NCBI GenBank assembly: GCA_964372875.1
Contig: CAYJTB010000001.1
Coordinates: forward strand, 27,860-91,859
Source of the DNA: an uncultured bacterium
GTDB taxonomy: Bacteria; Omnitrophota; Omnitrophia; Omnitrophales; JACQLI01
DNA length: 64,000 nt
Reading direction: 5' to 3'
Under the pieces are notes generated by a model. It had not been told where the DNA came from. It was given only the letters and a program-made list of their open reading frames with translations, and made no database searches. The translations under genes and the position numbers were made by a program. This document shows, piece by piece, positions 24,301 to 36,692 of this stretch (its first letter is position 1; the number at the start of each line of letters is the position of its first letter).

Positions 24301-27300
24301 CAAGCCCTTGCCGAAAGACAGGCAAAAGGTCTTTCCAGTGATCCAAAATCCCTTCAAAGGCATTTAGCCGAAGGCGGCAACCCTACTTTGCTCACCTTCA
24401 TTTATCGATGGAATCAAAAGCACCCGGAAGAACCCATTGAAATGAAATTGTTGCCTACCCGAACCCACAAGTACGAATCCAAAGGAGAAATTATTGAAGC
24501 GCTGGAAAAAAGGCGGCTGGAAAAAGGAGAATCAGCCAATTATCGAATGCAATTACGCCTTCATATAGAAGAAGGCGGCGATCGTACATTGTATCAAGCG
24601 GTTCTGCGTTGGAATCATGATCATCCAGAGGATTTGATCAATCTTCCTTTGGATCCCCATGTGGCGCATGGTCAATTGGGAAAATACCAGACCAAACAAG
24701 ACGGCTTGAATACTTTGAGTGAAAGGAAAAAACAAGGTCTGGGAAATTCAACCAGCGATCTCAGGCAAACTAAATCGGATGGGGGGGATTGGCCTCTTCT
24801 TGTTTTTATTCGCCATTGGAATAAGAAGCATCCGAAGGATCGCATTGCGCTGGAGAATGCTGACCAAAACTTCAACCGCCTGAGTCCTGTTGCGGTCTGG
24901 CATTCCCAGACGCAGGATTTCAAGACGACCGATCAAAAAAGAACCGAATGGTGGCGGGCCTTGCAGGAAGAGGCGGATCACGAAGCTGGAAAAAGGCTGG
25001 TCGAGTCTTTTATTCCTTCAGTCAATGAGATTGCCCAAAGGTTAAGCGGGGGGAGAGATTCGCATTATGAAGCGGATTTAATCCAAAACGGAAATATGAT
25101 TGTCCTTGAGACGATCTATCCCGAGCGTAAAGAAGACCAGTGGAATCCGAGCCGCGGGGTTTCCATGACCGAATTTGTCGAGACCCGTTTAAAGAAAGAG
25201 ATGAGGCACCGGACATTGCAAGAGATACGTTCCAGCGGGAGATTTTCCATCGACGAGCCCTACCGTTTTTCCAAAGGCAGAGAAAAGGAATGGCAGGTTC
25301 CCAGTTATGACGCCCAACCGCAGGAAGTCCGAATTAACAACTTGGCTGATGAGAGGGACAAGCAATCGGGCCTTCCCGTGATTTTGTTTGAGGAAAAACA
25401 TCAAATCGCCCGCGAGATCGGAAAATGGTTAATCAAAAAAGGTTTTCTTAAACAGGTCAAGCAGGAAGGGATTCAGAACCTTGCCGTTTCAATGATCGGA
25501 AGCCTGGGAGTGCTCGGATCGGCAGTCAGAGATAAAAGCGATCTTAATTTGATGGTTGTTACCGACGCAAATGAGTCGCAGGCTGAAGCCCTCGCAGAAA
25601 AACTTGCGCAGTGGATCGGGGGCCGATATCACGAGCCGCAGGATTCGGAGCCTATCCGCATCTCCGTAGGAAAAGAAGGTGATTATGAGCAAGCCATAGC
25701 AGACGGAAACGGCTTCATTAGCTTACTTCAAAAACACAAGGTGGGCACAGACCCCATCAAAGGAATTGCAAGCGTTGAAGTGATTGGAATTCCCGACGAA
25801 GACAACTCGTTTTCCGAAGACTCTCTTACCCGGCAAAAAACGCGGGCGGCTTTTCACCTGGCCTTCCAAGATCCCCGGTTAGCCGAGCAGGCAATCAATG
25901 GGATCCTTGTCCTTGAAAATGCCAAGGGGGCCGCAGAGCGTCTTGCCCAAAAATTGCCGAGCGATCAGGAAAACCTTTTCGGTTATTATGAAAAATTTCT
26001 TGCCAAACAAGCCGCCAATCTTCGCAAGTTGCAGGAATCTTCCATTGACTCAAAAGCAAGGGCCGAGGTGCACCCGAATCCGACCGATTCGGGTACTCCT
26101 CAGTCCTCGCCCGATCAGGCGAGGGCCGAGGTGCGTTCTTCTTTGCCGGAGCAACGGGCGGAAAAGAAGTTAGAAACAAGAAAGTTGGAAATTGGAGCAG
26201 GAATCAGCGGGCTTAGCGGCCGCGTTGAAACATCTAATGGGCGTGTTTTTTCCGGAAGTGATCGATTGCCAATAAAGTCAACGAGATCGCCGCAAAAATC
26301 AGAATGGCAAGGACAGCCGTCATTTAGTCTTCCTCCTTTGAGGAGCTTGCCGCAAAAATCAAGCCCAAATAAAAGCATATCACGAGTCCTCCTAGAACGA
26401 CAAGCCGCCATTTCAGGGAGAGTTTTAGGAAAAGCTCTCCTCCCAGAACTCCTGCTAATAGGACCAAAATCACATGCTGAAACAACTTTGCCAGCCAGTC
26501 CCTCCGGGCCGTTGTCAGGAATATACTTTTCACAAAATAAAATATATAGCAATATCAATTCAGAGTTAAGCGATTTTTCCCGCTCCGATGGTTCGACAAG
26601 CTCACCATCGGTCCTGAGCAAGGCCGAAGGCCGCGTCGAACGCGCCGAGGTGCACCCGAATCCGACCGATTCGGGTACTCCTCCGCACTCACGCCCAACC
26701 GGCGTGAGTACTGAGGTGTCCCTGGCGGCGCCGCCAGGGGCTCCTCCGTCCTCGCCTGAACGGGCGAGGGCCGAGGTGCGGGCAAGCGTTGAAGAAATAA
26801 TCAGGAAGCAGATGCTTTCTGGAGATCTGAAGGCCTTTGAAAAGAATTTCGAATCTTACGACCGTGAAAAGGCCTTTGAACTTTTAAATAGCATTTCGAA
26901 AATTGCCAAGGAAATTTCAGAAAGGATCCGCAAAGGAGAAGAAGAACTGATGGTAGCTGCAAACAATGGCCAAAAAATGCAAGAAATCATTGACGCGGCT
27001 AAAATCTTGGAAAATTTCCCAAATGATAAACAAATACATGGTGTCCACCTATCAGCTATTATAAATTTACAGGAAATCTTCAATCTTACACCAAAAGCAT
27101 TGCCAAGATATCGCAATCTCTTAGAAGCTATTGTTAAACACGCGTCAAAAAAAGAACAACCTCACCAGGCAGCAGCTGAAATTATCGAGAGCTTTGAAGG
27201 AGAACAGCACGCTGATTCCCAACAAGATCAATTTCAAAGGAACGAAGCACTGGAATTTTTAACCCTAGATCTGGATGAAAAAGTTTTTAAAGAAACAGTA

Positions 27301-28719
27301 ATAAAAAATCATTTTCTGACCGCGCTTCATCATTTCATTTGGGAACACAGCGACTTTGAAGATGCGAAGAATTTAGCCAGAGAACTCGGTAACTTGAGCC
27401 TAATCAGTTCTTTGTTGGGTGAGCCCCTCAGTAAAAGACAGGCCGCTTTTTATAAGCGCGCACTTTTGAGCTCTGACCGCACGCAGCAGAAGATCGCGCT
27501 TGGCTTCTTCGAGACTTTCCCTGATCTTGAAAAAATGGACTGGAAAGAGGAAGTCGTTGGTAAACTTAAAGAAATCGTAATGGATGAATCCGAAGATTCT
27601 GAATTTAGAAAATATGCCTTTGAAGCGTTGACAAACAATATTCTTCTTATAGAGCCAGCCTTTTTGGCGCCTTATTTTAAAGAGCCGCGCAGCCAACGGT
27701 TTCGAATCATTTCTTCGGATAAAAAAGGCGCTCGGATTTTATTTTCGGTTCTTCAGAAGAAATTTGGGTCGCCTTTAAAGGACCCGCCCCTTTTTAAAAA
27801 AAGTTCCGAGTCCATCATTTTATCAGGAGAATTTACGACAGGTCTGAGAAATGCTGCCATGTTGATCCGATTTGTAAGGCAGGCCTACGGCCGGGAGATA
27901 TCCTTTGATGAGTCCCGCGGCTTGCTTAAAGAGATGAAAAAGAAACAAGACAGATCCCGGCGTTCCGAAATACGGAGTGAAAGCTTGGATTCGACGTGGG
28001 AGTTGAGGGAGGATGCGAACAAAGGAAAGCTTGCGGAACTTGGAAAACAATTTGCGCCGATGATTGAGAGTCTTTGGAAACGCTCCGAGGTCAGGCACAG
28101 GCTTGCGACGGACGGATTTTTGAATCTTTCAAAGCTGATTGAAATTCCCAAAGCCGAAGCGGCTGAACCTGCGATTGTAGCTGCGCTTTTGATCCGTGCA
28201 GAACAATCCCAAACCGGAACGCCGGCTTTGGACAAACATTTGCAAGTGTGGCAGTCGCGCATGGGAATCAGTTCGGTTGCTAAAGAAAATGAAGTCGTAA
28301 TCCTCTTAGAAGGTGCGGCGTTTAAACTCGGACTCTTGGCTGCGATCGACGGAATTAGCCCGGCAGCTCCGAAGATCGGCGTTGTGGCGCCCAAGGCTTA
28401 CCATTCTTTAGTGGAAGAAGTCAGAAGCGGTCTTAGAACCGGGCAAGAACTGATCGAAGGGGAGAAGCTTCCCGAAATTTTAAATCAAATTGCTCAGATG
28501 AAACAGAAGCCAAGCCGCTTAACGATTTGGGCTTCGAAGGAAGACTCGTTCTTAACAGCAGCGTTCATCAAACGTTTTCTTAAAGATCCAAACCTGAATG
28601 TAGAAGTAAAGACCGTGACGCAGCGCGATCTTGACCGCGCCAACGCGTCTCACCCCGGCTTTGCGGAACGTATCAAGAACTTCCTCGCCGCCGTCAAATC
28701 CCTCAGCATTTCCGCTTAA
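15316..28719 (+). CDS. giant modular ORF, 4,467 codons, function unknown
   Basis: Single uninterrupted frame; AGGAAAG RBS; N-terminal TM helix; protein-like composition in most modules; junction peptide conserved with synonymous codon variation. Caveat: three segments look non-coding on this strand. Confidence 0.7.
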   Translation: MTLRAKNFYLRTVAAFTAIIFCWNSLAWPLPEVAVPQAGKTFDLIPKELGTVDEYELPDASHSAPFVIHIQDLHAAPEAQEKILDILKFLHSKKKLLVAVEGAAGTLHPEYLDFFPQYPRVTNALVQDLVSESMLTGPALFAWERYESKPSLHPSLRGRKSEAISNPRLLRRAFGPPHNDNSVQFIGVETPRLYRENLKAYRDFFQDEEKNQQDLKSFQTSLESAQTKIFNPDLRKFVQEVQRRKDGKFQSGKASPDLAAYIRFLADSSRDHLGVDLRDKFEQIRFPNLTRILFLMEFESKITAHQRRVLHSEIESKKLFDEITLLETRLRQILVKKPEETKLLEILDDFKLLEKLFHLELTREEYYQVVNRVLEINPSNLHQRLATIAEIASTSSEMLSRNDADYETALRFYRLAIRRDKALLENALREAAKTENSSQEKPLIVLVTGGFHTSGVSELLKEKKIPYAVVTPALAKTKANQDQYHKLMSGKMFAKEASSASPKNNNLVWAQILTARDRYPSLNSDEDQQKIFSHATEKSGEYFRKFYPQISEPKLQELLSRPAGFFSQISRSELQSRSQITNSAIDGRIGGKRVLPSRFPRSEVRAVEQRLEVSGQKTEGWSSKIGKIIRNGSDFGLSRVFQRSQAKNYRIPSRLEKSRGERIEISLKVFIDSRSWSPVTMIVALAERAHSSTASSSGSRQAFTFVLGLTIKAFIWINEIISSSISGVIHFLSLGFSSERRKSSSKAGDKAAMNLSSSRDSRIERQTPGKASPLTSTFTSRTTRRIPFLPGLLDQIQKLFSAERVFLSAFINFAGQRTEAFSPGLMFKTTDQGNAVTGFQLIDHALNLLNVYFHGNLRHRILSSSSNQYNLSALADQNQNISSVKPSKQSSTEPSRRAASGPESRQSPILSVDRPGGARGEVRAKEQRSEVREQRIEVISQRSEGKITSSGGDFGSVRSGTSRPRQEISKPKQETRLSRFIYPFSESLGQAIQEIRIMMATIIERTALAFNEVFQMFSLTTRAANTRLTALMIPSANKFRLLDGKRVFISMLQAPQPNTGLILSQILFLEYEISRRSEVREYISDWTVSTLETKQPVLAAAFSTDGKILAAGARNNVHLTNGDLRKWSVEFRAHRNEIAKLISFQRGNRNFFATASRIGSISLWNSNGGLIRRLEQLNPEDFQPVLGLSVSKNGDWLAATDMDVMKIYDLTGMSSPKTIPITDQSRNHFVQFSPDGTSIASTYYGEIRIEDIKTGKLRANLHHEASLKKSMDTSALAFSKGDDVAAASTDGKIRIWRWKGERQPQVLDFLSPAREASHLIFSPNGKRLAASTADQIEIWKLNGKVWRHEETIYPHLDAVTEILFSPDAKRFMAAGIWHGSGRVRIWSKETPARAEVRTDGIPTTWFRIFNRLDNLNREVWKQKDLDIIDLTNQLEKKLISLFGSQLLYGIWTWNTSVREVRFGLRSGPLSFELTANPHQEIPEREIKRGYTVTMNAMLTSAAESQHAKKWGDSEPEERGETLLEIPIAEIDRSQPVIYFGSFYFDTDKEKKETIIKQEILFLPGEERNYQIYIWHNNALEKTTLEKEGGRTYAVWRTPEAEPSLSFQYVALHDAQGKDLGEISRLILKAGNSETYRNNLQFLYGPIWRDETSSFSHGSRTSVKPSVFEDLISAAPGKRIAALLGLAIEYQYVPEGQVFSRMLLTELEKLEGLPYGRIAALREIAEMSPEEAHERFKDPYDQPSAIPAVMTLVASLAPRLLERMKNWDQEFYEELKGVLQKPDLKTLFEEGEVKFYEADHLWAASDNRSFFPGVVAFSRSKDRQIIVPIYFGNEPKDEDGKVWFKILDATSLGIENSNAATYQVYDHMLGEFYKTLHSGEKLYREGWSIGIPVVPGKLDRAGFIQKGRHVQFLEMRRTQSLTTATRIGLPENLVKTQGILTDLLREMSKLEIYFFISKTGATDRRMVPVDNVYEFFSSYAGKKGEHWNEIVSEPLQLTVSSPGFKRQTLRHALRMMQEALQLTYSFPGTLKGNDPHLSFYHDKLIEETQLLKTSDQTGKWAHVEFEIASSHFEMPDHWDQPAENSLRQRIQALREALEIPFVLMLKAPSGAKDPYHIEPVGNLHQRLPYFVLKDDFLKNPHDPRFPYFSKGAQLSFGLEAPMDSARLEQVRNILVASLEGRMSAATLKRAIEVTMHQWQREDSFFSESRSEARRVPRTLAVHPVRLAPGTPLYPDRSGPGVAVQSHWNSARSEVRTEKSERLTRSNAGELLKPRRYLKNKIYGIGRITAVEGKFGGKDPQGSVEVAFLNKHGFEETKEFSTWSLFQLPEQNPEEAFFSVTRQEIEDFKNQKRQGQAAYKEEIDKKRIAQREGRQWMEAQSPTFSLYDSPFSARAGRPLAADYRKLMQGIQDRAQGEYHLGSASIVERKILFEMLGTRLIPKTNQSETTLRINLGRRKKEFAEKLKTILDETGGLSARAVSEAEEKIMSPKDKSRALSSEWLKFRDPVTGKFATEKDIKRWIQNAIPIVERILEYEVKLLKLEKQIQIHPRPLARSEVRAAESSPTKKVAFFNLRTADDSSIVLPQRMSYLPVEQRLPDYSAWRIRVGRESGNLHAFLRDVLGPRWHWNVKGETKAYFLYKSLPKKFKQFIGKRKPPTGFDMEALGLLVVNRSDIFYIPMEETVNESVVTVLDKNDRDAINEFISHHAMIQTVPQNIRIFPPVRYESVKFGLGEDPVSSPKPGSIEVVYHPRLMVNDLGKADKEIIFETSFDLTQLRPRKKITAELEGRFYQELKSRLRNTWQIRIGNRTVEMPRAKDLPAKVQDVEEILLPGNNRKTASLHFNDAVSFYLDGILMRSNVPVPKDIHAWIFWKTRIRFNDQEISVETTEGNNVLTYRTDETGEHLRVNGEPTDNSVLQNMIRQMGSAFSILAFQMARDPEQTDYLRESGKETIDDEFDQWLGRSEVREEGQPAQNGNGHAIQKKQRGRGFRTKEEALQALAERQAKGLSSDPKSLQRHLAEGGNPTLLTFIYRWNQKHPEEPIEMKLLPTRTHKYESKGEIIEALEKRRLEKGESANYRMQLRLHIEEGGDRTLYQAVLRWNHDHPEDLINLPLDPHVAHGQLGKYQTKQDGLNTLSERKKQGLGNSTSDLRQTKSDGGDWPLLVFIRHWNKKHPKDRIALENADQNFNRLSPVAVWHSQTQDFKTTDQKRTEWWRALQEEADHEAGKRLVESFIPSVNEIAQRLSGGRDSHYEADLIQNGNMIVLETIYPERKEDQWNPSRGVSMTEFVETRLKKEMRHRTLQEIRSSGRFSIDEPYRFSKGREKEWQVPSYDAQPQEVRINNLADERDKQSGLPVILFEEKHQIAREIGKWLIKKGFLKQVKQEGIQNLAVSMIGSLGVLGSAVRDKSDLNLMVVTDANESQAEALAEKLAQWIGGRYHEPQDSEPIRISVGKEGDYEQAIADGNGFISLLQKHKVGTDPIKGIASVEVIGIPDEDNSFSEDSLTRQKTRAAFHLAFQDPRLAEQAINGILVLENAKGAAERLAQKLPSDQENLFGYYEKFLAKQAANLRKLQESSIDSKARAEVHPNPTDSGTPQSSPDQARAEVRSSLPEQRAEKKLETRKLEIGAGISGLSGRVETSNGRVFSGSDRLPIKSTRSPQKSEWQGQPSFSLPPLRSLPQKSSPNKSISRVLLERQAAISGRVLGKALLPELLLIGPKSHAETTLPASPSGPLSGIYFSQNKIYSNINSELSDFSRSDGSTSSPSVLSKAEGRVERAEVHPNPTDSGTPPHSRPTGVSTEVSLAAPPGAPPSSPERARAEVRASVEEIIRKQMLSGDLKAFEKNFESYDREKAFELLNSISKIAKEISERIRKGEEELMVAANNGQKMQEIIDAAKILENFPNDKQIHGVHLSAIINLQEIFNLTPKALPRYRNLLEAIVKHASKKEQPHQAAAEIIESFEGEQHADSQQDQFQRNEALEFLTLDLDEKVFKETVIKNHFLTALHHFIWEHSDFEDAKNLARELGNLSLISSLLGEPLSKRQAAFYKRALLSSDRTQQKIALGFFETFPDLEKMDWKEEVVGKLKEIVMDESEDSEFRKYAFEALTNNILLIEPAFLAPYFKEPRSQRFRIISSDKKGARILFSVLQKKFGSPLKDPPLFKKSSESIILSGEFTTGLRNAAMLIRFVRQAYGREISFDESRGLLKEMKKKQDRSRRSEIRSESLDSTWELREDANKGKLAELGKQFAPMIESLWKRSEVRHRLATDGFLNLSKLIEIPKAEAAEPAIVAALLIRAEQSQTGTPALDKHLQVWQSRMGISSVAKENEVVILLEGAAFKLGLLAAIDGISPAAPKIGVVAPKAYHSLVEEVRSGLRTGQELIEGEKLPEILNQIAQMKQKPSRLTIWASKEDSFLTAAFIKRFLKDPNLNVEVKTVTQRDLDRANASHPGFAERIKNFLAAVKSLSISA
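15765..15855. mobile_element. MITE-like element inserted in-frame in the giant ORF
   Basis: GTCATTGCACCC GTCATTGCGAGG...AAGCAATC..GATTGCTTCG...CCTCACAATGAC; translated SLRGRKSEAISNPRLLRRAFGPPHND. Confidence 0.6.
16475..16524. repeat. possible degenerate/short copy of the same MITE family
   Basis: CCATTGCTGAGATTGCTTCG...TCTCGCAATGAC, translated ...MLSRND; left terminus is weak. Confidence 0.3.
17059..17082. repeat. 24-bp perfect palindrome
   Basis: AATTCGGCCATC|GATGGCCGAATT, 34 nt upstream of the first RSEVR junction. Confidence 0.9.
17259..17672 (-). CDS. PIN-domain ribonuclease toxin (PIN_3/VapC-like)
   Basis: VVLDVNVLVSGL..., CRDPDDDAVLECALSAKATIIVTGDHDLL: acidic PIN residues in the canonical order; 20-nt overlap with the upstream small gene. 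Confidence 0.9.
   Translation of the reverse strand: MRRVVLDVNVLVSGLAFPGVCRSILESLEEDKFIAALSPALLEDFLRSLEKPKLKKWITPEMLEEMISLIHMKALIVKPKTKVKACRDPDDDAVLECALSAKATIIVTGDHDLLSMKTFKEISILSPRDFSKRLGIR
17653..17892 (-). CDS. putative antitoxin of the PIN toxin
   Basis: 79-aa basic protein directly upstream of and overlapping the PIN gene; strong RBS; family not recognised. Confidence 0.6.
   Translation of the reverse strand: MPKIAVEVDIQQIERMINQLKSRDRITLIRRLEHKTWGERFRSLTRKVDKSRKKHPLSRKELLNLVKQARQERYASGRS
18070..18556 (-). mobile_element. antisense cassette 2: junction, 3'-flank repeat, small membrane protein
   Basis: Same build as cassette 1; bounded by junctions at 18070 and 18541; minus-strand TTGACT -35-like box upstream of ATG 18461. 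Confidence 0.4.
18258..18461 (-). CDS. small two-TM membrane protein (paralog of 26324..26533)
   Basis: 67 aa with two hydrophobic helices. Shares MK(T/S)(L/I)F...RR..(F/L)A...LVL.A.V...SLK pattern with the other cassette protein. Confidence 0.5.
   Translation of the reverse strand: MKTLFPSKRRNLFADGIMRAVSLVLAALVVSENIWKTSLKAKAVLSIIVAIMILISWMACPRDSEKG
18556..19491 (+). other. WD40-type beta-propeller module of the giant ORF
   Basis: Repeated units such as FSTDGKILAAG, ATASRIGSISLWN, FSPDGTSIAS, ASTDGKIRIWRW, FSPNGKRLAAS..IEIWK, FSPDAKRFMAAG..RVRIWS. Confidence 0.8.
21937..22080. repeat. in-ORF array of GC-rich hairpins at a module junction (copy a)
   Basis: CGAGGCAC/GTGCCTCG; CCCGGTGC/GCACCGGG; ACCCGGACC/GGTCCGGGT; CAGAGT/ACTCTG; CCGTTC/GAACGG; flanked by RSEAR and RSEVR codons. 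Confidence 0.65.
24274..24857 (+). repeat. three tandem ~65-aa protein repeats inside the giant ORF
   Basis: GFRTKEEALQALAERQAKGL...GGNPTLLTFIYRWNQKHPEEPI / KYESKGEIIEALEKRRLEKG...GGDRTLYQAVLRWNHDHPEDLI / KYQTKQDGLNTLSERKKQGL...GGDWPLLVFIRHWNKKHPKDRI. Confidence 0.6.
25060..25230 (+). other. sigma-70 region-2-like stretch in the giant ORF
   Basis: EADLIQNGNMIVLETIYPERKEDQWNPSRGVSMTEFVETRLKKEM resembles DLIQEGNIGLMKAV..FDP.RG..FSTYA.WWIR. Confidence 0.35.
25483..25575 (+). other. nucleotidyltransferase (Pol-beta/MNT-like) motif in the giant ORF
   Basis: SMIGSLGVLGSAVRDKSDLNLMVVTD matches the G-S-x(n)-G...D-x-D minimal NTase pattern. Confidence 0.45.
26059..26136. repeat. in-ORF hairpin element (copy b)
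   Basis: AGGGCCGAGGTGCAC CCGAATC cgacc GATTCGG GTACTCCT...CCTCGCC cgatca GGCGAGG GCCGAGGTGCGT; 39 bp (26062-26100) are repeated perfectly at 26644-26682. Confidence 0.7.
26324..26533 (-). CDS. small two-TM membrane protein (paralog of 18258..18461)
   Basis: 69 aa, GTG start, two hydrophobic helices, acidic C-terminus (SSSKEED); A/T-rich TATATT box upstream on the minus strand. Confidence 0.5.
   Translation of the reverse strand: MKSIFLTTARRDWLAKLFQHVILVLLAGVLGGELFLKLSLKWRLVVLGGLVICFYLGLIFAASSSKEED
26641..26781. repeat. in-ORF hairpin element (copy c, expanded to four hairpins)
   Basis: CCCGAATC/GATTCGGG; ACTCACGCC/GGCGTGAGT; CCCTGGCGG/CCGCCAGGG; CCTCGCC/GGCGAGG. Confidence 0.7.
26782..27960 (+). 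other. alpha-helical (HEAT/ARM-like) module of the giant ORF
   Basis: Helix-rich composition with a recurrent ~40-aa helical periodicity; judged by eye only. Confidence 0.3.
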
Positions 28720-28807: not shown

Positions 28808-29017
28808 ATGACACGAGTGACAGTTTCCCCAAAATATCAAATCGTGATCCCTAAAGAAATTAGGGAAAAGTTGGATATTCGGTGCGGACAGAAGATGGCC
28901 GTCGTAACAAGAGGGGAATGGATTATGCTGGTTCCCGATCTGCCTTTGAAACATTATCGGGGGTTTTTGAAAGGTGTGAGTTCAGAGGGGGTTCGTGACC
29001 GAAGGGACCGGTTTTGA
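28808..29017 (+). CDS. vapB: AbrB/SpoVT-type antitoxin
   Basis: MTRVTVSPKYQIVIPKEIREKLDIRCGQKMAVV: looped-hinge-helix AbrB fold motif; 4-nt overlap with the PIN gene. Confidence 0.85.
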   Translation: MTRVTVSPKYQIVIPKEIREKLDIRCGQKMAVVTRGEWIMLVPDLPLKHYRGFLKGVSSEGVRDRRDRF

Positions 29018-29391
29018 CGGTCATCGATTCAAGCGGTTGGATTGAGTTTTTTAGCGAAGGTCCACTTGCCTCCCATTATGAAAAGCATTTGGGGTCTTTG
29101 TCTGAGATTGTCGTTCCTACCATTGTGCTTTATGAAGTCTACAAGAAATATAAGAGAGAAAGCGGAGAGCAAGGCGCTTTGACCGCGGTGTTTCATATGC
29201 AAAAGTGCCGGATCGTACCTTTAACAGAAGAATTGAGTTTGGAGGCGGCGGATTTAAGCCTTCAATACGGACTTGCCATGGCCGATGCGATTGTTTATGC
29301 GTCGGCACTTCAGGAAAAAGCAAAGTTAATCACCAGCGATAAAGCCTTAAAAAATCTGCCTCAAGTGGTTTACTACAGTAAATCGTCCTAA
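29014..29391 (+). CDS. vapC: PIN-domain toxin
   Basis: MTVIDSSGWIEFF..., LSLEAADLS...MADAIVYASA...LITSD: PIN acidic residues. Confidence 0.85.
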   Translation: MTVIDSSGWIEFFSEGPLASHYEKHLGSLSEIVVPTIVLYEVYKKYKRESGEQGALTAVFHMQKCRIVPLTEELSLEAADLSLQYGLAMADAIVYASALQEKAKLITSDKALKNLPQVVYYSKSS

Positions 29392-29397
29392 GATTCC

Positions 29398-30312
29398 TTG
29401 AGTTCCACGCAAATCGCCCTTCTTAAAAAATACGGTCTTGAAGTCCGTGGATTTCGCGGCCAGCATCTTTTGGTCGATCCCAACATTCAACGAAAGATCG
29501 TGGAGTTAGTCGCTCCCAAACCAGGTGAGTGGATCGTTGAGATCGGGCCGGGCCTGGGTGCGCTCACGACTGAGATTTTGGCGGACGGCGCGTCGGTCCT
29601 TGCGATTGAAAAAGACAAACGCTTCTGCGAGATCCTGGAAGGGGAGTTCGGCATCGATTACAAAGGAAAACTCCTGATCGAAAATGCGGATGTTCTCAAG
29701 ACGGATTTAAAAAAATTACTCAAATCGTCGTTACGAGCCCCAAAGAGGCGAAGCAACCTAAGCACGAAGACTGCTTCGGCGCCGCCTCGCAATGACCGGA
29801 TCAAAGTCATCTCGAACCTTCCTTACTATATAACTTCACCTGTGCTTTTCTGGCTGATCTCCAATCGTGCATCTGTGGAAAAAGCGGTTTTGATGATGCA
29901 GGCTGAAGTCGCGGACCGTTTGCTCGCCCAGCCGGGAGATAAAGATTATAGCCGGCTTACCTTGGGAGTCCGGTATTACGCCGAAGTCCACCGTGCTTTT
30001 GAAGTTTCCCGCAATTGTTTTACTCCGAGGCCCGATGTCGATTCAACGGTCGTGACGATCGATTTTCACCCGCCGTCCGCATTCCCAAAAGGAATCGACG
30101 AGGCATTTCTTTTCCATCTCATTCAAGTAGCCTTCGGTGCCCGGCGAAAAACCCTACTCAATCGTCTTACGCAAGATTCAAAAGTAGGTCGCCCTCGTTC
30201 CCAGCTCTTAGAAATTTTTCACAAGCTCGGCATCCCCGAAATGGCCCGCGCTGAAGAGCTCCTCCTCAAAGACTTCATCTCATTGACCGAATTTCTTCAA
30301 CCTAAACATTAA
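29398..30312 (+). CDS. rsmA: 16S rRNA (adenine1518/1519-N6)-dimethyltransferase, carrying an in-frame repeat insertion
   Basis: GQHLLVDPNI, VEIGPGLGALT SAM motif, SNLPYYITSP; TTG start. Confidence 0.9.
   Translation: MSSTQIALLKKYGLEVRGFRGQHLLVDPNIQRKIVELVAPKPGEWIVEIGPGLGALTTEILADGASVLAIEKDKRFCEILEGEFGIDYKGKLLIENADVLKTDLKKLLKSSLRAPKRRSNLSTKTASAPPRNDRIKVISNLPYYITSPVLFWLISNRASVEKAVLMMQAEVADRLLAQPGDKDYSRLTLGVRYYAEVHRAFEVSRNCFTPRPDVDSTVVTIDFHPPSAFPKGIDEAFLFHLIQVAFGARRKTLLNRLTQDSKVGRPRSQLLEIFHKLGIPEMARAEELLLKDFISLTEFLQPKH
29727..29796. mobile_element. MITE-like element in-frame in rsmA
   Basis: GTCGTTACGAG...GAAGCAACC..CTGCTTCGG...CCTCGCAATGAC, translated SSLRAPKRRSNLSTKTASAPPRND, placed just before the NLPY motif. 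Confidence 0.6.
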
Positions 30313-30328
30313 AATTCATTATCCGGAA

Positions 30329-30425
30329 GGACACGAGTCTCGTCGTCACTCGTAACGCCCCTGCGAGACAGTCCCCTTCTATATTGTTTCTTTTCAAGGA
30401 TCGGGGCAAGTCCCCGTGGGACGTC
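30329..30425 (+). repeat. structured intergenic repeat, copy R1 (left half of the ~180-bp unit)
   Basis: GGACACGAGTCTCGTCG.CACTCG.AACG.CCCTGCGAGACAGTCCCCTTCTATATTGTTTCTTTTCAAGGATCGGG is near-identical to the reverse complement of 32770-32847. Confidence 0.8.
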
Positions 30426-30548
30426 CTCGTTCGTGCGTCCGGCCTCGTTCTCCGCCAAAACGCGTGGCGGATCCCTGCCCACTCGGCCTTCCGAACGCGC
30501 CTCGACTGGTCCTTCCGCTGATCGTAACCTAGCAGAATCCCCAAGCCT

Positions 30549-30690
30549 GAGACGGTCCCCTTCATTAATTTTTATTTTCAAGGATCGGGACAGCCCCCTT
30601 GTGGGGCGGCGTAGCGGCCGTTACGGAAAAATCCGGAAAAGATTTTTCCGTAGGCCCACGAGTGAGGGCGACTCCTTGTCCGTTTCTATC
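30549..30690 (+). repeat. structured intergenic repeat, copy R2
   Basis: GTCCCCTTCATTAATTTTTATTTTCAAGGATCGGGACAGCCCCCTTGTGGGGCGGCG...CGGAAAAATC cggaaaa GATTTTTCCG...CCTTGTCCGTTTC; matches the reverse complements of 32488-32574 and 32671-32770. Confidence 0.8.
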
Positions 30691-30735
30691 TTGTCGCCTG
30701 AACGTTCGGCGAAGGCTGTGGGGATTCTCCCTGCG

Positions 30736-30765
30736 TTGACAATAAGAATTGCGGCATGCTACGAT
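30736..30765 (+). promoter_or_regulatory. candidate promoter immediately upstream of gatC (possibly leaderless)
   Basis: TTGACA, 18 nt spacer, TACGAT; the -10 box ends 8 nt before ATG 30773 and there is no SD. Confidence 0.3.
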
Positions 30766-30772
30766 CCTTGGC

Positions 30773-31057
30773 ATGTCGTTTGAAATCGAGCAAATTGCGG
30801 AACTTGCAAGACTCAGTCTGAAGCCTGAAGAAAAGGCCAAGTTAAAGAAGGATCTGGAATCGATCCTCGCCTATATGGCGCAGTTGAAAGCCGTTCCGAC
30901 GGACGATGTAGAGCCCACAAGTCACGTCCTTAATCTGGAAAATGTCTTCCGGGAAGATGAAATTAAGCCTTCCGATATCCGCGAAGATGTCCTCAAGTAT
31001 GCCCCTCACCGAGAAGGAAGTTTCTTCAAGGTCCCCAAGGTCATTGATCAGGAATAA
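30773..31057 (+). CDS. gatC: Asp/Glu-tRNA amidotransferase subunit C
   Basis: MSFEIEQIAELARLSLKPEEKAKLKKDLESILAYMAQL...VEPTSHV...REDE: GatC signature; ATG 30773 preferred to the track start 30749. Confidence 0.9.
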   Translation: MSFEIEQIAELARLSLKPEEKAKLKKDLESILAYMAQLKAVPTDDVEPTSHVLNLENVFREDEIKPSDIREDVLKYAPHREGSFFKVPKVIDQE

Positions 31058-32475
31058 TGTCTGATTTCAGACTCACTTTAAAAGAAGCGATCGGTTTCTC
31101 TCAAAAAAACGGGGCGGAGCCGCTTATCCAAGGTCTTTCTAAGCGGGTCCAAGACGTAGATGGAAAAATAAATGCCTATATCCGTTTTGACCCGTCAAAA
31201 ATCGAGCGGGCCAAAAATCAGGGGCTGCTCCACGGCGTTCCTATTTCTATCAAAGACAATATTTGTACGCGTGGGTGGGAGACAACATGCGCGTCAAAAA
31301 TTTTGTACGGATATACCCCTCCTTATGACGCGGCGGTGATCGAAAAATTGCGGGCTGCGGGCGCCACAATTTTTGGTAAATGCAACATGGATGAATTTGC
31401 TTTTGGCTCCTCCAATGAAACCTCGACTTTCGGTCCCGTCCACAATCCTTGGGATTTGGAAAGGGTGCCGGGCGGTTCAAGCGGCGGATCGGCGGCAAGC
31501 GTTGCGGCGGATGAGGCCTTTGCAGCGCTTGGATCTGACACCGGCGGATCGATCAGGCTTCCTGCCGCATTCTGCGGAGTTGTAGGATTCAAACCCACGT
31601 ATGGAAGAGTCTCGCGTTACGGCCTCGTCGCCTTTGGTTCAAGCTTTGACCAGATCGGTCCCATTACAAAAACCGTTGAAGACTCGGCTATCTTAATGAA
31701 TATTTTGGCGGGTTACGATGAACGCGATTCAACCTCTGCAAATATTCCGGTTCCTGATTACATCCAAGCATTAAAGCGGGGAGTTAAAGACCTAAAGATC
31801 GGAATGCCTAAAGAATTTTTTGTCAAAGGTATGGACCCGGAGATTGAAAAGGCAGTGCGCAAAGCGGGGAAAGTTTATGAAAAGATGGGTGCAACGATCA
31901 AAGAAGTAAGTCTGCCGCACACGGAGCATTCGGTCGCTGCCTATTACATTGTAGCCGTAGCTGAGGCAAGTTCCAATCTCGGCCGTTATGACGGCGTCGA
32001 ATATGGACTCCGGGCAAGTGAGAATAATTTGCGTGATATGTATTTTGAGACGCGCGATCAAGGGTTTGGCCAGGAATCGAAGCGGCGAATTCTTTTGGGC
32101 ACGTTTGTACTCTCAGCCGGTTATTACGATGCATATTATAGGAAAGGCCAAAAGGTAAGGACTTTGATCCGGCAAGATTATGAGAAGGCGTTTAAAGAAA
32201 TCGACGTTCTCTTGACTCCTGTTTCGCCGTCGCCTCCTTTTAAACTAGGCGAAAAATTAACCGATCCGCTTACGATGTATCTTTCAGATATTTTTACGAT
32301 CTCTGTGAATCTGGCAGGAGTCCCGGCCATCGTCCTTCCGTGCGGTTTCACAAAATCCAATCTTCCGATTGGAATGCAGCTTATCGCGCCGGCTTTTGCC
32401 GAAGAGACTCTCTTTCAAGCTGCATCTGGCTACGAACAGGAAACCCAATGGTTCAAACGCAAACCGAAAATTTAA
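31057..32475 (+). CDS. gatA: Asp/Glu-tRNA amidotransferase subunit A
   Basis: Amidase signature GGSSGGSAASVAA...GSDTGGSIRLPAAFCG; TAATG overlap with gatC. Confidence 0.95.
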   Translation: MSDFRLTLKEAIGFSQKNGAEPLIQGLSKRVQDVDGKINAYIRFDPSKIERAKNQGLLHGVPISIKDNICTRGWETTCASKILYGYTPPYDAAVIEKLRAAGATIFGKCNMDEFAFGSSNETSTFGPVHNPWDLERVPGGSSGGSAASVAADEAFAALGSDTGGSIRLPAAFCGVVGFKPTYGRVSRYGLVAFGSSFDQIGPITKTVEDSAILMNILAGYDERDSTSANIPVPDYIQALKRGVKDLKIGMPKEFFVKGMDPEIEKAVRKAGKVYEKMGATIKEVSLPHTEHSVAAYYIVAVAEASSNLGRYDGVEYGLRASENNLRDMYFETRDQGFGQESKRRILLGTFVLSAGYYDAYYRKGQKVRTLIRQDYEKAFKEIDVLLTPVSPSPPFKLGEKLTDPLTMYLSDIFTISVNLAGVPAIVLPCGFTKSNLPIGMQLIAPAFAEETLFQAASGYEQETQWFKRKPKI

Positions 32476-32487
32476 TGCCAAAGAGCA

Positions 32488-32574
32488 GAATCTCCGCCCC
32501 ACAAGGGGGCTGTCCCGATCCTTCAAAAGAAACATTAATGAAGGGGACCGCCTGCGTCGGACGTTCGGCCGGCG
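32488..32574 (-). repeat. structured intergenic repeat, copy R3 (inverted)
   Basis: CCGCCCCACAAGGGGGCTGTCCCGATCCTTCAAAAGAAACATTAATGAAGGGGAC is the reverse complement of the R2 core. Confidence 0.8.
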
Positions 32575-32670
32575 CATGAACGGGTGAGGAAATCAAAAGG
32601 TGATCATTCCAAATGAACGTGAACAGATAAGGAAACAGTAATAATCTGGGAAGATGCACACAGGTATGAA

Positions 32671-32847
32671 GATCGAAACGGACAAGGTGCCGGCCTCACT
32701 CGACGGGCCTTCGGAAAAATCTATTCCGGATTTTTCCGAGACGGCCCAACGCCGCCCCACAAGGGGGCTGTCCCGATCCTTGAAAAGAAACAATATAGAA
32801 GGGGACTGTCTCGCAGGGACGTTGCGAGTGGCGACGAGACTTGTGCC
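32671..32847 (-). repeat. structured intergenic repeat, copy R4 (inverted, full-length ~177 bp)
   Basis: Its reverse complement joins the R1 left half to the R2 right half, which defines the full unit. Confidence 0.8.
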
Positions 32848-32865
32848 TGCAGCGGATGGAAATTA

Positions 32866-34287
32866 ATGGAAACAGTCATTGGATTAGAAGTTCACGTTCA
32901 GCTGAAAACGAAATCGAAATTATTCTGCGGATGCCCCAACGCATTTGGCGCGGAGCCCAACCGCAATACATGTCCTGTCTGTATGGGTCTGCCGGGCTCG
33001 CTGCCGGTACTGAATCGGGAAGCCTTGCGCTTTGCGGTTAAGATCGGTCTGGCGCTTAATTGCCAAGTGGCGGACCGCCTCAAATTCGACCGGAAAAATT
33101 ATTTTTACCCTGACCTACCCAAGGCTTATCAAATTTCTCAATTCGATATGCCGGTCAATTCCACGGGCTTTCTTATGGTGGAAACTTCCAAAGATCTTAA
33201 GAAAATAGAAATCACACGCGCGCATTTGGAAGAAGATGCCGGAAAACTTTTGCACGAAGGAATCAAAGACGGAAGCCTTGTTGATTACAACCGCGCCGGT
33301 GTTCCCTTGCTCGAGATTGTTTCTGAGCCCGACCTTCGTTCGCCCGAAGATGCTTATGATTACCTCGCCACTCTCAAAGCTATCCTCCAATATCTGGAAG
33401 TAAGTGATTGCGATATGGAAAAGGGGAGTCTACGCTGCGACGCCAATATTTCCGTAAGAAAAGAAGGCGACCCGAAGCTTGGAACGAAAGTTGAAATTAA
33501 AAATATGAATTCCTTCCGCGCGGTTCAAAAAGCCGCTGAATATGAAATCAGCCGCCAAATCAAAGTGTTGGAAGAGGGCGGAAAGCTCGTGCAGGAGACG
33601 CGGCTTTGGAATGAGGCCAAAGGCCAAACCTTTTCCATGCGTTCCAAGGAATTTGCTCACGATTATCGATATTTTCCTGAGCCCGATCTTGTGCCCTTCA
33701 CGATTTCCCGCAGCGAAGTTGAAGAGGCACAAAAAACCATGCCCGAACTGCCGGTCGACCGGGCAAAACGGCTCATGCAGGAATATCAGCTCACAGAAAA
33801 AGATGCATTGAGGCTCGTGCAAGATAAAAAATTGGTGGAATATTATGAGACTTGTCTTAAAACAAAGGCCAATCCCAAACTTGTGAGTAACTGGATTTTA
33901 AGTGAACTCCTGGGTCACCTAAATCAAAAAGCTCTGGGGATTGAGGCTTCTCCAGTTTCACCCGCAGCCCTCGCCGGACTTGTGCAACTCATTGAGAACA
34001 ACACCATCAGCGGTAAGATTGCCAAAGATGTGCTTCCTGAAATGATTGAAACAGGGAAATCCGCAGAAGTGATCGTCAAAGAAAAAGGTCTCGTGCAAGT
34101 GACCGATGTGAAATTTTTGGAAGAAGCAGTCCAGCGTATTATCCAAGCCAATCCCAAATCTGTGGAGGATTACCGGTCCGGAAAAAAACAAGCCTTGGGT
34201 TTTTTGGTGGGCCAGATTATGAAAGAGACTCAAGGCAAGGCCAATCCTAAGATGGTCAATGAAATCCTGGAAAGGAAACTGTCGTGA
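32866..34287 (+). CDS. gatB: Asp/Glu-tRNA amidotransferase subunit B
   Basis: METVIGLEVHVQL.TKSKLFCGC...CPVCMGLPG.LPVLN, YFYPDLPK.YQISQ: GatB signature. Confidence 0.95.
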   Translation: METVIGLEVHVQLKTKSKLFCGCPNAFGAEPNRNTCPVCMGLPGSLPVLNREALRFAVKIGLALNCQVADRLKFDRKNYFYPDLPKAYQISQFDMPVNSTGFLMVETSKDLKKIEITRAHLEEDAGKLLHEGIKDGSLVDYNRAGVPLLEIVSEPDLRSPEDAYDYLATLKAILQYLEVSDCDMEKGSLRCDANISVRKEGDPKLGTKVEIKNMNSFRAVQKAAEYEISRQIKVLEEGGKLVQETRLWNEAKGQTFSMRSKEFAHDYRYFPEPDLVPFTISRSEVEEAQKTMPELPVDRAKRLMQEYQLTEKDALRLVQDKKLVEYYETCLKTKANPKLVSNWILSELLGHLNQKALGIEASPVSPAALAGLVQLIENNTISGKIAKDVLPEMIETGKSAEVIVKEKGLVQVTDVKFLEEAVQRIIQANPKSVEDYRSGKKQALGFLVGQIMKETQGKANPKMVNEILERKLS

Positions 34288-34297
34288 CGGGATCATT

Positions 34298-35362
34298 ATG
34301 TTAACCCTCGGCATCGAGACCTCCTGCGATGAAACCTCCTGCGCGGTTTTAAAAAATGGCGATGAGATTCTTTCCAATATTGTTTCCTCGAGCCTTGCCC
34401 AACACACACCCTTTGGGGGAGTCGTTCCCGAGATTGCGTCGCGTCACTGTCTGGAACAAATTGATTTAGTTTTTGAAACCGCGCTCGAAAAGGCCGGCGT
34501 TTCAAAAAAAGATTTGGATTTAGTCGCGGTAACCCAAGGCCCCGGGCTGGTGGGTTCGCTTCTGGTCGGACTTTCTTTTGCCAAGGCGTTGGCCTATCAG
34601 CTTAAAATCCCTTTGATTGGGGTCAATCATTTAGAAGGACATCTTGCAGCGAATTTTATTGGAAAGCCGCTTCCGAAATCTTTCATTGGTTTGATTGTCT
34701 CGGGCGGCCACACAGAACTTACTTATCACCGGAACGGCGCCATAAAAATTCTTGGATCTACGGTGGACGACGCTGTGGGTGAGGCGTATGACAAGTCAGC
34801 GAAACTTCTCGGCCTGGGTTATCCCGGCGGTCCGGTCATGGATAAGTTGGCGCAAAAGGGAAATCCCAAGGCCTTCCGGTTCACGCGGCCCAAGCAAAAA
34901 GGACGATTTGATTTTAGTTTCAGCGGAATTAAAACAGCGGTATCTGTCATTGTGAGGGCGCAAAGCGCCCGAAGCAATCTGACGCCAGTGGCGTCAGGGC
35001 TTCGTCCCGCCCCCGTTGGGGGCAGTCCTCGCAATGACCATCAGTTTGTCAACGATCTCTGCGCCAGTTTTCAGGAGACGGTAGTGCGCTGGCTTGTGGA
35101 AAAAACCATCGCCGCCTGCAGGAATAAAAAAGTAAGCGATGTGGTTGTGGGCGGGGGAGTAAGCGCCAATACAAGACTCCGTGAACTTCTTCCCCAAGAA
35201 GCCAAGCTTTATCATATCAATGTTTGGTTTCCTCCGTTTTCGCTGACCATTGATAATGCGGCAATGATCGCAAGGCGAGGCTTTGAACTTTACCAGAAAG
35301 GAAAACGAACGGATTTCAAAATTTCAGCCCGTCCCAGTTTTCCCATAGGAGAGGCAAAATGA
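34298..35362 (+). CDS. tsaD: tRNA N6-adenosine threonylcarbamoyltransferase, carrying an in-frame repeat insertion
   Basis: MLTLGIETSCDETS, GVNHLEGHL, FSFSGIKTA, GGVSAN: TsaD/Kae1 motifs; ATG 34298 preferred to the track start 34259. Confidence 0.92.
   Translation: MLTLGIETSCDETSCAVLKNGDEILSNIVSSSLAQHTPFGGVVPEIASRHCLEQIDLVFETALEKAGVSKKDLDLVAVTQGPGLVGSLLVGLSFAKALAYQLKIPLIGVNHLEGHLAANFIGKPLPKSFIGLIVSGGHTELTYHRNGAIKILGSTVDDAVGEAYDKSAKLLGLGYPGGPVMDKLAQKGNPKAFRFTRPKQKGRFDFSFSGIKTAVSVIVRAQSARSNLTPVASGLRPAPVGGSPRNDHQFVNDLCASFQETVVRWLVEKTIAACRNKKVSDVVVGGGVSANTRLRELLPQEAKLYHINVWFPPFSLTIDNAAMIARRGFELYQKGKRTDFKISARPSFPIGEAK
34946..35038. mobile_element. MITE-like element in-frame in tsaD (93 bp, 31 codons)
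   Basis: GTCATTGTGAGG...GAAGCAATC...CCTCGCAATGAC with hairpins GGGCGC/GCGCCC, TGACGCC/GGCGTCA, GCCCCC/GGGGGC; translated VIVRAQSARSNLTPVASGLRPAPVGGSPRND between FSFSGIKTA and the ..LCASFQE helix. Confidence 0.7.
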
Positions 35363-35808: not shown

Positions 35809-36692
35809 CACTCACACAAGAAACTATCGGAAAAATTTTAAAAGAGGTCGAATCGCGCAAAATTTCCAGCCAGAAGGCGTTTGGGAAATTACAAAATCTC
35901 GCTTACGAAACTTTTTCATTCGCCAGGATGGATCATCACCGTACTCTGCGCAAAGGTTTTCCGGAGGCGATCTACACACCCGGTAAAACGATTCCTCAAC
36001 TGGAAAAAATTTTCCGTTCGATCCAAAAATCAGGACAAAAGCTGATCGCGACGCGCTTGGAGGAGAGTGTTTATAAAACACTCAGGAAAAAATTCCCCGG
36101 TCTTCGCTATTCAAAGGAAGCAAGGATTGGGTATTTCTCATCCGTCATTGCGAGAAGCACCAACGGTGCGACGAAGCAATCCCGACCAGAGATTGCTTCG
36201 TCCCTTCCTACGGAAGGGACGGTTAAAGGAATCCTCTTTAGCCCTGACGCCAGTGGCAACAGGACTTCGGCTTTGTCTGGAACGCCGCCTCGCAATGACA
36301 GAGAGAAATCCATTGCGATTCTCACCGCTGGCACGAGCGATCTTCCGGTTGCGGAAGAGGCGGCCATTACGCTTGAATTAATAGGAAAGAAAGTTGTCCG
36401 GATTTATGACTGCGGTGTCGCGGGCCTGCACCGGCTTTTGGATCAAGTCTCAACATTACAAGAAGTCAAAGCCGTGATCTGCGTTGCGGGAATGGAAGGC
36501 GCACTTCCGAGTGTGGTCGCTGGCTTGATCAGTAAACCTATCATTGCAGTTCCGACCAGTGTGGGTTACGGCGCAAGCTTCAAAGGTCTTGCGGCGCTTC
36601 TTACCATGCTCAATTCCTGCGCTCAAGGTGTAGCCTGCGTCAATATTGATAACGGATTCGGCGCCGCCTGCTTTGCCGCGTCTATTGCCTAA
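35805..36692 (+). CDS. larB: LarB-like protein (PurE/AIR-carboxylase fold; pyridinium-3,5-biscarboxylic acid mononucleotide synthase family), carrying an in-frame repeat insertion
   Basis: N-terminal domain ..ARMDHHRTLRKGFPEAIY.PGKT; C-terminal IAILTAGTSDLPVAEEAA...CVAGMEGALPSVVAGL...IAVPTSVGYG; ATGA overlap with the MgtC stop sets the start at 35805. Confidence 0.75.
   Translation: MTLTQETIGKILKEVESRKISSQKAFGKLQNLAYETFSFARMDHHRTLRKGFPEAIYTPGKTIPQLEKIFRSIQKSGQKLIATRLEESVYKTLRKKFPGLRYSKEARIGYFSSVIARSTNGATKQSRPEIASSLPTEGTVKGILFSPDASGNRTSALSGTPPRNDREKSIAILTAGTSDLPVAEEAAITLELIGKKVVRIYDCGVAGLHRLLDQVSTLQEVKAVICVAGMEGALPSVVAGLISKPIIAVPTSVGYGASFKGLAALLTMLNSCAQGVACVNIDNGFGAACFAASIA
36144..36299. mobile_element. 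MITE-like element(s) in-frame in larB (156 bp, 52 codons; possibly two fused units)
   Basis: GTCATTGCGAGA...CGAAGCAATC ccgaccaga GATTGCTTCG, TCCCTTCC/GGAAGGGA ... CCTCGCAATGAC; lies in the linker between the two LarB domains. Confidence 0.7.

Follow-up and report, generated by a model that had tools for sequence, protein, structure and literature searches.

The 64,000-nt stretch of DNA analysed here (hereafter the window; contig CAYJTB010000001.1) comes from an uncultured bacterium of the Omnitrophota and carries one copy of a modular, hairpin-rich repeat element on either side of the gatC-gatA gene pair. The genes that frame these copies all lie on the forward strand. rsmA/ksgA, encoding the 16S rRNA dimethyladenosine transferase (29398..30312; Pfam RrnaAD, E = 4e-50), precedes a first spacer of 460 nt, which runs from the rsmA stop codon at 30312 to the gatC ATG at 30773 (30313-30772). 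gatC (30773..31057; Pfam GatC, E = 2e-24) and gatA (31057..32475; Pfam Amidase, E = 2e-156, with homologues named GatA) come next, and a second spacer of 390 nt (32476-32865) separates the gatA stop codon at 32475 from the ATG of gatB at 32866 (gatB, 32866..34287; Pfam GatB_N, E = 1e-125, plus GatB_Yqey). The best homologues of GatA range from 95% down to ~67% identity and, where they are named, are GatA of Candidatus Omnitrophica/Omnitrophota. The window genes near the locus (encoding MazE, PIN, RsmA, GatCAB, TsaD, MgtC, and a LarB-like protein) belong to a string that, around both spacers, is otherwise tightly packed and nearly all co-directional.

A sigma-70-like promoter (TTGACA-18-TG-n-TACGAT, 10 of 12 consensus matches; 30736..30765, forward strand) closes the first spacer and ends 7 nt 5' of the gatC ATG. 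The motif is kept 5' of gatC in all the relatives inspected (L004, L005, L009, L010, L011, L015, and L017; L numbers denote the contigs compared with the window). A promoter ending 7 nt from the ATG implies a leaderless gatC mRNA in L004, L005, L009, L010, and L017 as well as in the window, where the message is probably leaderless. In L011 and L015 the same promoter is followed instead by a leader of ~30 nt with an AAGGAG Shine-Dalgarno sequence. Because the promoter lies downstream of the first element copy, only the second copy, in the downstream spacer, splits the gatCAB operon. The original prediction for this locus, that repeats create long spacers inside a normally tight operon, stands in so far as insertions have inflated junctions that are normally short or overlapping (gatB overlaps gatA in L007/L008 and L015/L016), but the interruption of the operon itself is confined to the downstream spacer.

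That prediction had described four copies, R1 to R4, of a ~180-bp multi-hairpin unit, two of them direct copies upstream of gatC and two of them inverted copies between gatA and gatB. All four repeat segments are present in these places, with matches far above chance. A repeat finder recovers one direct pair upstream (30365-30408 versus 30549-30592, 84%) and one downstream (32494-32565 versus 32752-32823, 85%), and the two spacers are joined by inverted pairs at 94% (30332-30408 versus 32769-32845), 93% (30550-30609 versus 32494-32553), and 76% ungapped or 87.6% gapped (30549-30692 versus 32669-32812). The core 12-mer matches the window five times, versus 0.37 expected from shuffles, and the core 28-mer three times, versus 0.00 expected; pattern and repeat searches and nhmmer revealed no further copy anywhere in the 64 kb. 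Both hairpins singled out originally, GCCCC-cttgt-GGGGC and CGGAAAAATC/GATTTTTCCG, are present, and the statement that R4 equals the left half of R1 plus the right half of R2 is exact: a perfect inverted match of 47 nt links 32772-32818 to 30359-30405, and another of 38 nt links 32749-32786 to 30575-30612.

These segments are better understood as parts of a larger unit, which also occurs at a second locus. In CAYJQR010000125.1 (L002), a contig found by a core-pattern scan of GTDB genomes and belonging to a Planctomycetia metagenome-assembled genome (MAG) by record label only, the element modules fill the 582-nt sdhA|sdhB spacer. The same modules occupy the orthologous 497-nt sdhA|sdhB spacer of L013/L014, from a groundwater metagenome; this was the one additional locus retrieved by a search with a spurious 181-aa open reading frame (ORF) called on the L002 spacer. 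In a module map made by all-against-all BLAST and nhmmer, comparing the window with L013, L002, L010, and L004, the module order is a-c-link-d-mid-x, the element measures ~400-500 nt when complete, and individual copies span 390-582 nt. The best representative is L013, with the order x'-a-c-link-d-mid-x-a'.

By BLAST and nhmmer, each window spacer is a single copy of this element, and the two copies are oppositely oriented. Copy 1 (30313..30735, forward strand) reads a-[b]-c-[b]-d-x, where b is a separate insert, and lacks mid; its modules are a (~30318-30370), b1, c (30423-30554), b2, d (30609-30692), and x (30693-30735). Copy 2 (32476..32865, reverse strand) reads a-[b]-d-mid-x, with a further b inside x, and lacks c; along the minus strand its modules are a (32860-32807), b4, d (32752-32669), mid (~32668-32581), and x with b3 (32580-32476). 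Over 278 nt, among them the segment that separates R3 from R4, copy 2 aligns colinearly with the spacer of L002 at 80%, and it matches the sdh-locus copies by nhmmer with E-values of 3e-33 to 3.5e-47. R1 to R4 are the parts surrounding the four copies of b, and two ~400-nt copies of a modular element, each with two nested hairpin inserts of 52-54 nt, describe the spacers better than four copies of a ~180-bp unit.

The terminal a motif, TTCTCATCCGCTGCAGG-ACA-AGTCTCGTCGCC, is common to 9 of the 10 element ends that were aligned. In L013 this ~33-nt motif is found inverted at both ends of the copy, the right-hand one being clear in L002 as well, and L013 has a second inverted pair, x'/x, of 28 nt at 82%. 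In the complete sdh-locus copies, a therefore has the appearance of a ~33-nt terminal inverted repeat. Each of the window copies has a only at its gatCA-distal end and x at its gatCA-proximal end. At the gatA|gatB junction, AAAATTTAA stands on the left of the insert and GGAAATTAA on the right, just 5' of the present gatB ATG, and the uninterrupted junction of L007 has a single AAAATTTAA; this recurrence may represent a target duplication. A relic of the ancestral gatB start persists at 32448..32579 (forward strand). Its ATG at 32448 occupies the position seen in L007, 28 nt inside the 3' end of gatA, and the 43-codon ORF that it opens now extends into the element; a second in-frame ATG at 32475 overlaps the gatA stop codon as TAATG. 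At the far end of copy 2, a 70-codon ORF (32654..32866, forward strand) has a TAA stop that overlaps the gatB ATG, again as TAATG, and may be a candidate for delivering ribosomes to gatB.

Alignment of five copies of b identifies it as a separate double hairpin of 52-54 nt, of which the window has four nested copies, placed at different boundaries between modules. b1 (30371..30422, forward strand, 52 nt) consists of a GTCCC..GGGGC stem followed by GTCCC-cgt-GGGAC, and b2 (30555..30608, forward strand, 54 nt) of GTCCC..GGGAC followed by GCCCC-cttgt-GGGGC. b3 (32495..32548, reverse strand) is a double hairpin of 54 nt with CCGCC repeated directly on its two sides, and L013 provides the empty site for it: L013 reads GCACAATCTCCGCCTGCGTCGG, with a single CCGCC, where the window reads ...ATCTCCGCC-b-CCGCCTGCGTCGG, with CCGCC on both sides. 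b is also present in L002, opposite a clean 51-nt gap in L013, and this indel is flanked by a GGCG/CCGCC direct repeat. The a|c and link|d boundaries are without b in the sdh copies of L013 and L002, the a|c boundary is without it in L004, and L010 has no b beside d.

The fourth copy, b4 (32753..32806, reverse strand), is chimeric, its a-proximal part being identical to b1 and its d-proximal part to b2; the 47-nt (b1) and 38-nt (b2) exact inverted matches overlap by 15 nt inside it. b4 thus appears to be the product either of recombination between b1 and b2, with loss of module c, or of exchange between the two element copies, and its chimeric nature explains the composition of R4 from halves of R1 and R2. 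The b copies, 184 and 258 nt apart and not head-to-tail, are the sole direct repeats reported for the element.

The long open frames found in several copies invite the question of whether the element is a gene. Between L013 and L002, substitutions in the element fall on the three codon positions in the ratio 33/30/34, versus 7/3/42 in the flanking sdhA, which served as a positive control. The indels that separate the same two copies measure 1, 16, 51, 4, 1, 2, and 1 nt and are frame-shifting, and the "ORFs" of L013 and L002 use different frames over an identical stretch of ~65 nt. The even spread of substitutions and the reading of identical DNA in two frames rule out a protein-coding interpretation. 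When the 156-aa open frame of spacer 1 was searched exhaustively with HMMER, none of 1.84 billion representative proteins matched, and a six-frame chimeric "protein" query of both spacers, a design probably drowned in random word matches, gave no match at E <= 1. The element is non-coding and specifies no conserved protein.

Nor does it match a known RNA. The covariance-model check proposed with the original prediction came back negative for both spacers: at the gathering score, the sole match to Rfam 15 in the window is a tRNA-Gln. An E-value search of both spacers (E <= 5) returned only two chance miRNA matches, whose 18.7 and 15 bits fall short of the gathering scores of 75 and 95. A T-box, a riboswitch, or another known RNA is ruled out by these Rfam results, and a role as an intrinsic terminator by the count of terminator-like sites (8 versus 7.6 expected from shuffles) and by the absence of U-tracts from the hairpins.

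A scan of 39 window ORFs, spanning the gene string between secY and the polysaccharide genes apart from a giant ORF at 15316-28719, revealed no recombinase, integrase, or transposase, including RAYT/Y1. A literature search turned up no description of Omnitrophota repeats, nor of the core sequence of a second, unrelated palindromic family in the window (see below). REP and REPIN sequences are imperfect palindromes of 20-40 nt that occur in high copy and have an associated RAYT transposase. b is like REP, BIME, and REPIN sequences in being a GC-rich imperfect palindrome pair that occurs in both orientations and nests among other repeats. It differs from them as a double hairpin of 52-54 nt without the conserved REP head tetranucleotide, without REPIN doublets, and with neither a RAYT nor any other Y1 transposase among the scanned ORFs.

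Comparison of 12 orthologous gat contigs places the insertions in relation to uninterrupted junctions. In L007/L008 (GatA 81% identical to that of the window) and L015/L016 (82%), the gatB ATG lies 28 nt inside gatA and there is no element; the rsmA|gatC spacer is also short, at 35 nt in L007/L008 and 129 nt in L015. In L009 (88%) the rsmA|gatC spacer is empty and 51 nt long, and an a terminus lies directly 3' of gatA. Large rearranged family members are found in L004 (95%), L010 (87%), and L020 (86%), and a 118-nt mini-version consisting of termini only in L011 (85%). Family members accordingly stand 3' of gatA in L004, L009, L010, L011, L020, and the window. The downstream element is in reverse orientation in the window, L010, and L020 and in forward orientation in L004 and L009; in L004, the closest relative, it has the same orientation as the upstream copy. 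Because this orientation varies among relatives, the inverted bracket around gatCA is not a conserved feature. With the sdh loci included, the family is found at three junction types, rsmA|gatC, gatA|gatB, and sdhA|sdhB. An ordinary dispersed intergenic repeat with no orientation rule, which the original prediction had named as the outcome that would speak against it, is largely what emerges, since the same family fills sdhA|sdhB spacers elsewhere.

Other palindromes have entered the gatA|gatB junction as well. L005/L006 carry an 88-nt hairpin of tandem GGAAGTTACAG-like units (L005 11459-11561), L017-L019 have an 89-nt spacer (L017 4166-4254) in which a nested inverted repeat can be seen by eye, and the insert in L012 (11420-11535), unrelated as well, measures at least 116 nt. 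These unrelated long palindromes mark the gatA|gatB junction as a recurrent landing site for hairpin DNA. Several contigs of close relatives are just 2-2.6 kb long, roughly gatCA plus flanks, and short-read contigs of close relatives end in or just past repeats of the element family (L004 at 11706, the contig end; L009 at 2402; L010 at 1 and 2416; L020 at 2116). Since contigs end inside these repeats, Omnitrophota MAGs are probably fragmented at such junctions.

On balance, we favour the explanation that the element belongs to a non-autonomous, non-coding palindromic repeat family of the MITE (miniature inverted-repeat transposable element), BOX, and Correia kind, MIRU-like as well, which carries a nested REP-like hairpin and has settled at gene junctions. 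Pneumococcal BOX and neisserial Correia (NEMIS) sequences are bacterial MITE-like intergenic repeats of ~100-300 nt. The Omnitrophota element resembles both in being non-coding, hairpin-rich, and modular in the boxA-boxB-boxC style, with modules gained and lost, and, apparently, in having terminal inverted repeats; like them, too, it sits between co-directional genes, would be co-transcribed, occurs in either orientation, and has no transposase of its own. Small size, lack of coding capacity, and lack of an own transposase are also among the defining features of a MITE, and the copies here measure 390-582 nt. The window-type element is larger (400-580 nt) than BOX and Correia sequences, has no sequence similarity to either family, is apparently low in copy number in the sequence at hand, contains a nested second hairpin element, and comes from an uncultivated Omnitrophota lineage. 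On this reading, the repeats form a new intergenic family of the MITE/BOX/MIRU-like sort.

Within this family reading, the gene junctions of a single Omnitrophota sub-lineage have been colonised by the element. It would have arrived by transposition-like insertion at an AT-rich stop/start junction. Homologous recombination would later have exchanged sequence between the two window copies, because b occurs at the same two module boundaries in both and b4 is a b1/b2 chimera. Lineage-specific features common to both copies of one genome (b positions in the window and a hairpin variant in L010) indicate exchange between copies, and the copies as a whole have been reshaped by internal deletion, inversion, and such exchange. 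The element would persist because it does little harm. Copy 1 would lie outside a gatCAB transcript starting at the gatC promoter. Copy 2 would be transcribed by read-through, and gatB would probably be re-coupled by the small element-borne ORFs that lead from the TAATG on the gatA stop to the TAATG on the gatB start. Tolerance of the element would then follow from the separate promoter of gatC and from re-initiation at gatB; the presence within genes of a second, unrelated palindromic family, described below, indicates that insertions of this kind are tolerated in this genome. The two orientations are independent of each other, and the inverted bracket that they form around gatCA is a by-product and not a functional device.

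Several observations weigh against this explanation. The 64 kb contain just two element copies (four of b), all adjoining gatCA within 2.6 kb, and no element copy was found in ~90 kb of relatives outside the gat and sdh junctions. An exact-pattern scan of GTDB genomes for the b core gave one true extra locus (L002) and a chance match without further similarity (L001), the same scan of JGI metagenomes gave a chance match only (L003), and a scan of viral contigs for the d hairpin gave no match. The family is rare in public data, and, with few copies and one true extra locus in the pattern scans, a dispersed, multi-copy distribution is not demonstrated. The putative duplications (AAAATTTAA/GGAAATTAA and CCGCC) are short and ambiguous, and could also reflect microhomology or selection for TAATG. 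We know of no cognate transposase or autonomous parent of the element. Finally, the copies have diverged less than have synonymous sites in neighbouring genes: L013 and L002 differ by 19.6% in the element versus 35% at sdhA third positions, and module d is ~87% identical between the window and L010, for which gatA third positions are 52% different. In hairpin d, pairing is kept through three double substitutions that separate the window and sdh copies from L010. The low divergence and the compensation in hairpin d point to some constraint, unlike a purely neutral relic.

One way to account for such constraint, which overlaps with the repeat-family explanation and which we regard as possible though unlikely, is that the element is a specialist of operon junctions with a translational bridge. 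The open frame would let ribosomes cross the insert, melt its hairpins, avoid Rho-dependent polarity, and re-initiate downstream, so that openness of the frame would be selected and not the peptide; this mechanism, too, we hold only tentatively. MIRUs are units of 46-101 bp in tandem arrays, and the Omnitrophota copies differ in being single composites (400-500 nt in the typical element, 390-582 nt across copies) with strong hairpins, and in a coupling that is deduced from sequence and is incomplete in the window. A precedent exists in the MIRU, which sits between operon genes and keeps translation coupled through an ORF of its own, one that shares bases with the stop codon before it and the start codon after it (ATGA/TAATG; PMC12548453). 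An element-borne ORF overlapping the upstream stop and the downstream start is found in full in L013 and in part in L002, L004, and both window copies. In L013 the frame extends for 166 codons from TAA|ATG at the sdhA stop to an ATGA on the sdhB start. In L002 a 181-codon ORF begins at a TAATG on the sdhA stop, and in L004 the frame opened by the ancestral gatB ATG is stop-free to the contig end. ORFs in L005 and L011 run from the ancestral gatB ATG to a TAATG on gatB. From the first window spacer into gatC (30313-30783) a gene-strand frame is open for 156 codons, from the codon after the rsmA TAA to +8 of the gatC ATG, and in the second spacer ORFs start with the TAATG on gatA and end with the TAATG on gatB.

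Frames without any stop arose in 0 of 300 shuffles, both for the first window spacer and for L013, and full-length ORFs have been kept in L002 and L013 despite their frame-shifting indels. Against a bridge stand the homology of the copies, which makes their open frames non-independent observations, and the details of the frames themselves. Window copy 1 has no ATG in its frame, the first start codon being a GTG at 30433, and is situated 5' of the gatC promoter, a position that calls for no coupling; window copy 2 is broken into two ORFs with a 74-nt gap between them; and the L002 ORF ends 37 nt short of sdhB. It is doubtful that these copies represent a previously undescribed class of operon-junction mobile element, one that would target stop/start junctions and carry its own bridge frame open for 150-180 codons.

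The same constraint could be read as a benefit to the host. The element would then be a cis-acting RNA module whose co-transcribed hairpins act as 3' stabilisers of gatCA, offer sites for processing by RNase III or RNase E, or uncouple gatB from gatCA by partial attenuation, a proposal that we consider rather improbable. The full unit folds ~3 standard deviations better than shuffles on either strand (z = -3.0 and -2.9), one double substitution in the second hairpin of b keeps pairing as do those in hairpin d, and the element is more conserved than synonymous sites. The unrelated palindromes at the gatA|gatB junction of L005/L006, L017-L019, and L012 also hint that a hairpin is tolerated or favoured there. 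A precedent is provided by Correia and ERIC elements, whose co-transcribed copies are known to be cleaved by RNase III or RNase E (PMC10969869). However, the orientation of the downstream copy differs in the 95% relative, and therefore no strand-specific RNA can be required; close relatives also manage without the insert. In a variant of the proposal, read-through from rsmA may allow the inverted copies to pair over ~220 nt and RNase III to excise the gatCA transcript, in the manner of 16S rRNA excision, but the gatC promoter is downstream of copy 1, so that the long-range duplex depends on such read-through. The earlier suggestion of structured RNA or terminator modules thus gains from the compensatory changes that preserve pairing, and is weakened by the lack of an Rfam match and of any convincing intrinsic terminator or excess of terminator-like sites over shuffles.

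Least probable by far is the composite element or invertible gatCA segment proposed originally, in which the inverted copies would be the arms of a programmed or recombination-driven switch flipping gatCA and its promoter. The arms do hold perfect matches of 47, 38, and 30 nt, enough for RecA-type recombination, arm exchange does occur (shared b boundaries in the window, shared hairpin changes in L010), and the gatC promoter lies inside the bracket, so that, as in hin, fimS, and shufflons, a gene segment with a promoter is bracketed by inverted repeats; unlike those systems, however, the arms are hundreds of nucleotides of degenerate mosaic and not short defined sites, no invertase or recombinase is among the scanned ORFs, the cargo is an essential housekeeping pair whose inversion has no evident benefit, the closest relative, L004, lacks the inverted arrangement, and wherever an orthologous contig holds rsmA and/or gatB, gatCA points the same way relative to them as in the window.

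Other repeats occur in the same window. A second palindromic family, GTCATTGCGAG...CTCGCAATGAC, unrelated to the element, has 8 arm matches in the window versus 0.8 expected and is found at 15777-15855, 16514-16524, 29786-29796, 34946-35038, and 36144-36299. It lies in frame inside the giant ORF, rsmA, tsaD, and the LarB-like AIRC gene, where it adds 22-46 residues (signatures VIARS..TKQS and ..PPRND) that are missing from the L007 orthologues, and it is also found in tsaD of L006 and rsmA of L004. This in-frame insertion is like that of the Rickettsia palindromic elements, here in Omnitrophota housekeeping genes. Close to where two neighbouring Wzy_C (O-antigen ligase-like) genes begin, a 34-nt T-rich repeat (50396-50463 and 52688-52721) occurs in three copies, 68-71% identical to the reference, and is probably paralogous coding sequence.

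The giant ORF upstream (15316-28719) encodes 4467 aa and has near-identical internal repeats (26062-26135 versus 26644-26780). Its counterparts vary in length, with 2567 aa in L007, 1939 aa in L012, and at least 3453 aa in L004. Between this gene and rsmA, the window (28808-29391) and L004 have a MazE-PIN toxin-antitoxin pair, L005/L006 a Phd-ParE pair (L005 8155-8708), and L007 nothing (8811-8826). One toxin-antitoxin cassette has been exchanged for another at this locus.

For annotation, it matters that the spacers are not small genes and not regulatory leaders either, and that gene callers call spurious ORFs of 134-181 aa in them. For the organism, the locus shows the repeated colonisation by palindromic DNA of one precise junction, that of the gatA stop and the gatB start, an overlapping gene pair that has been pulled apart and then probably re-coupled, and evidence of sequence exchange between inverted copies that flank essential genes. 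If the idea of a bridging ORF were true, a hairpin-rich insert of 400-580 nt could sit in essential operons such as gatCAB and sdhAB without polarity, and the conservation of the element above the synonymous rate would be explained. It would also be the MIRU strategy enlarged about ten-fold, in a phylum that is distant and uncultivated, and a general recipe for the survival of selfish DNA inside operons.

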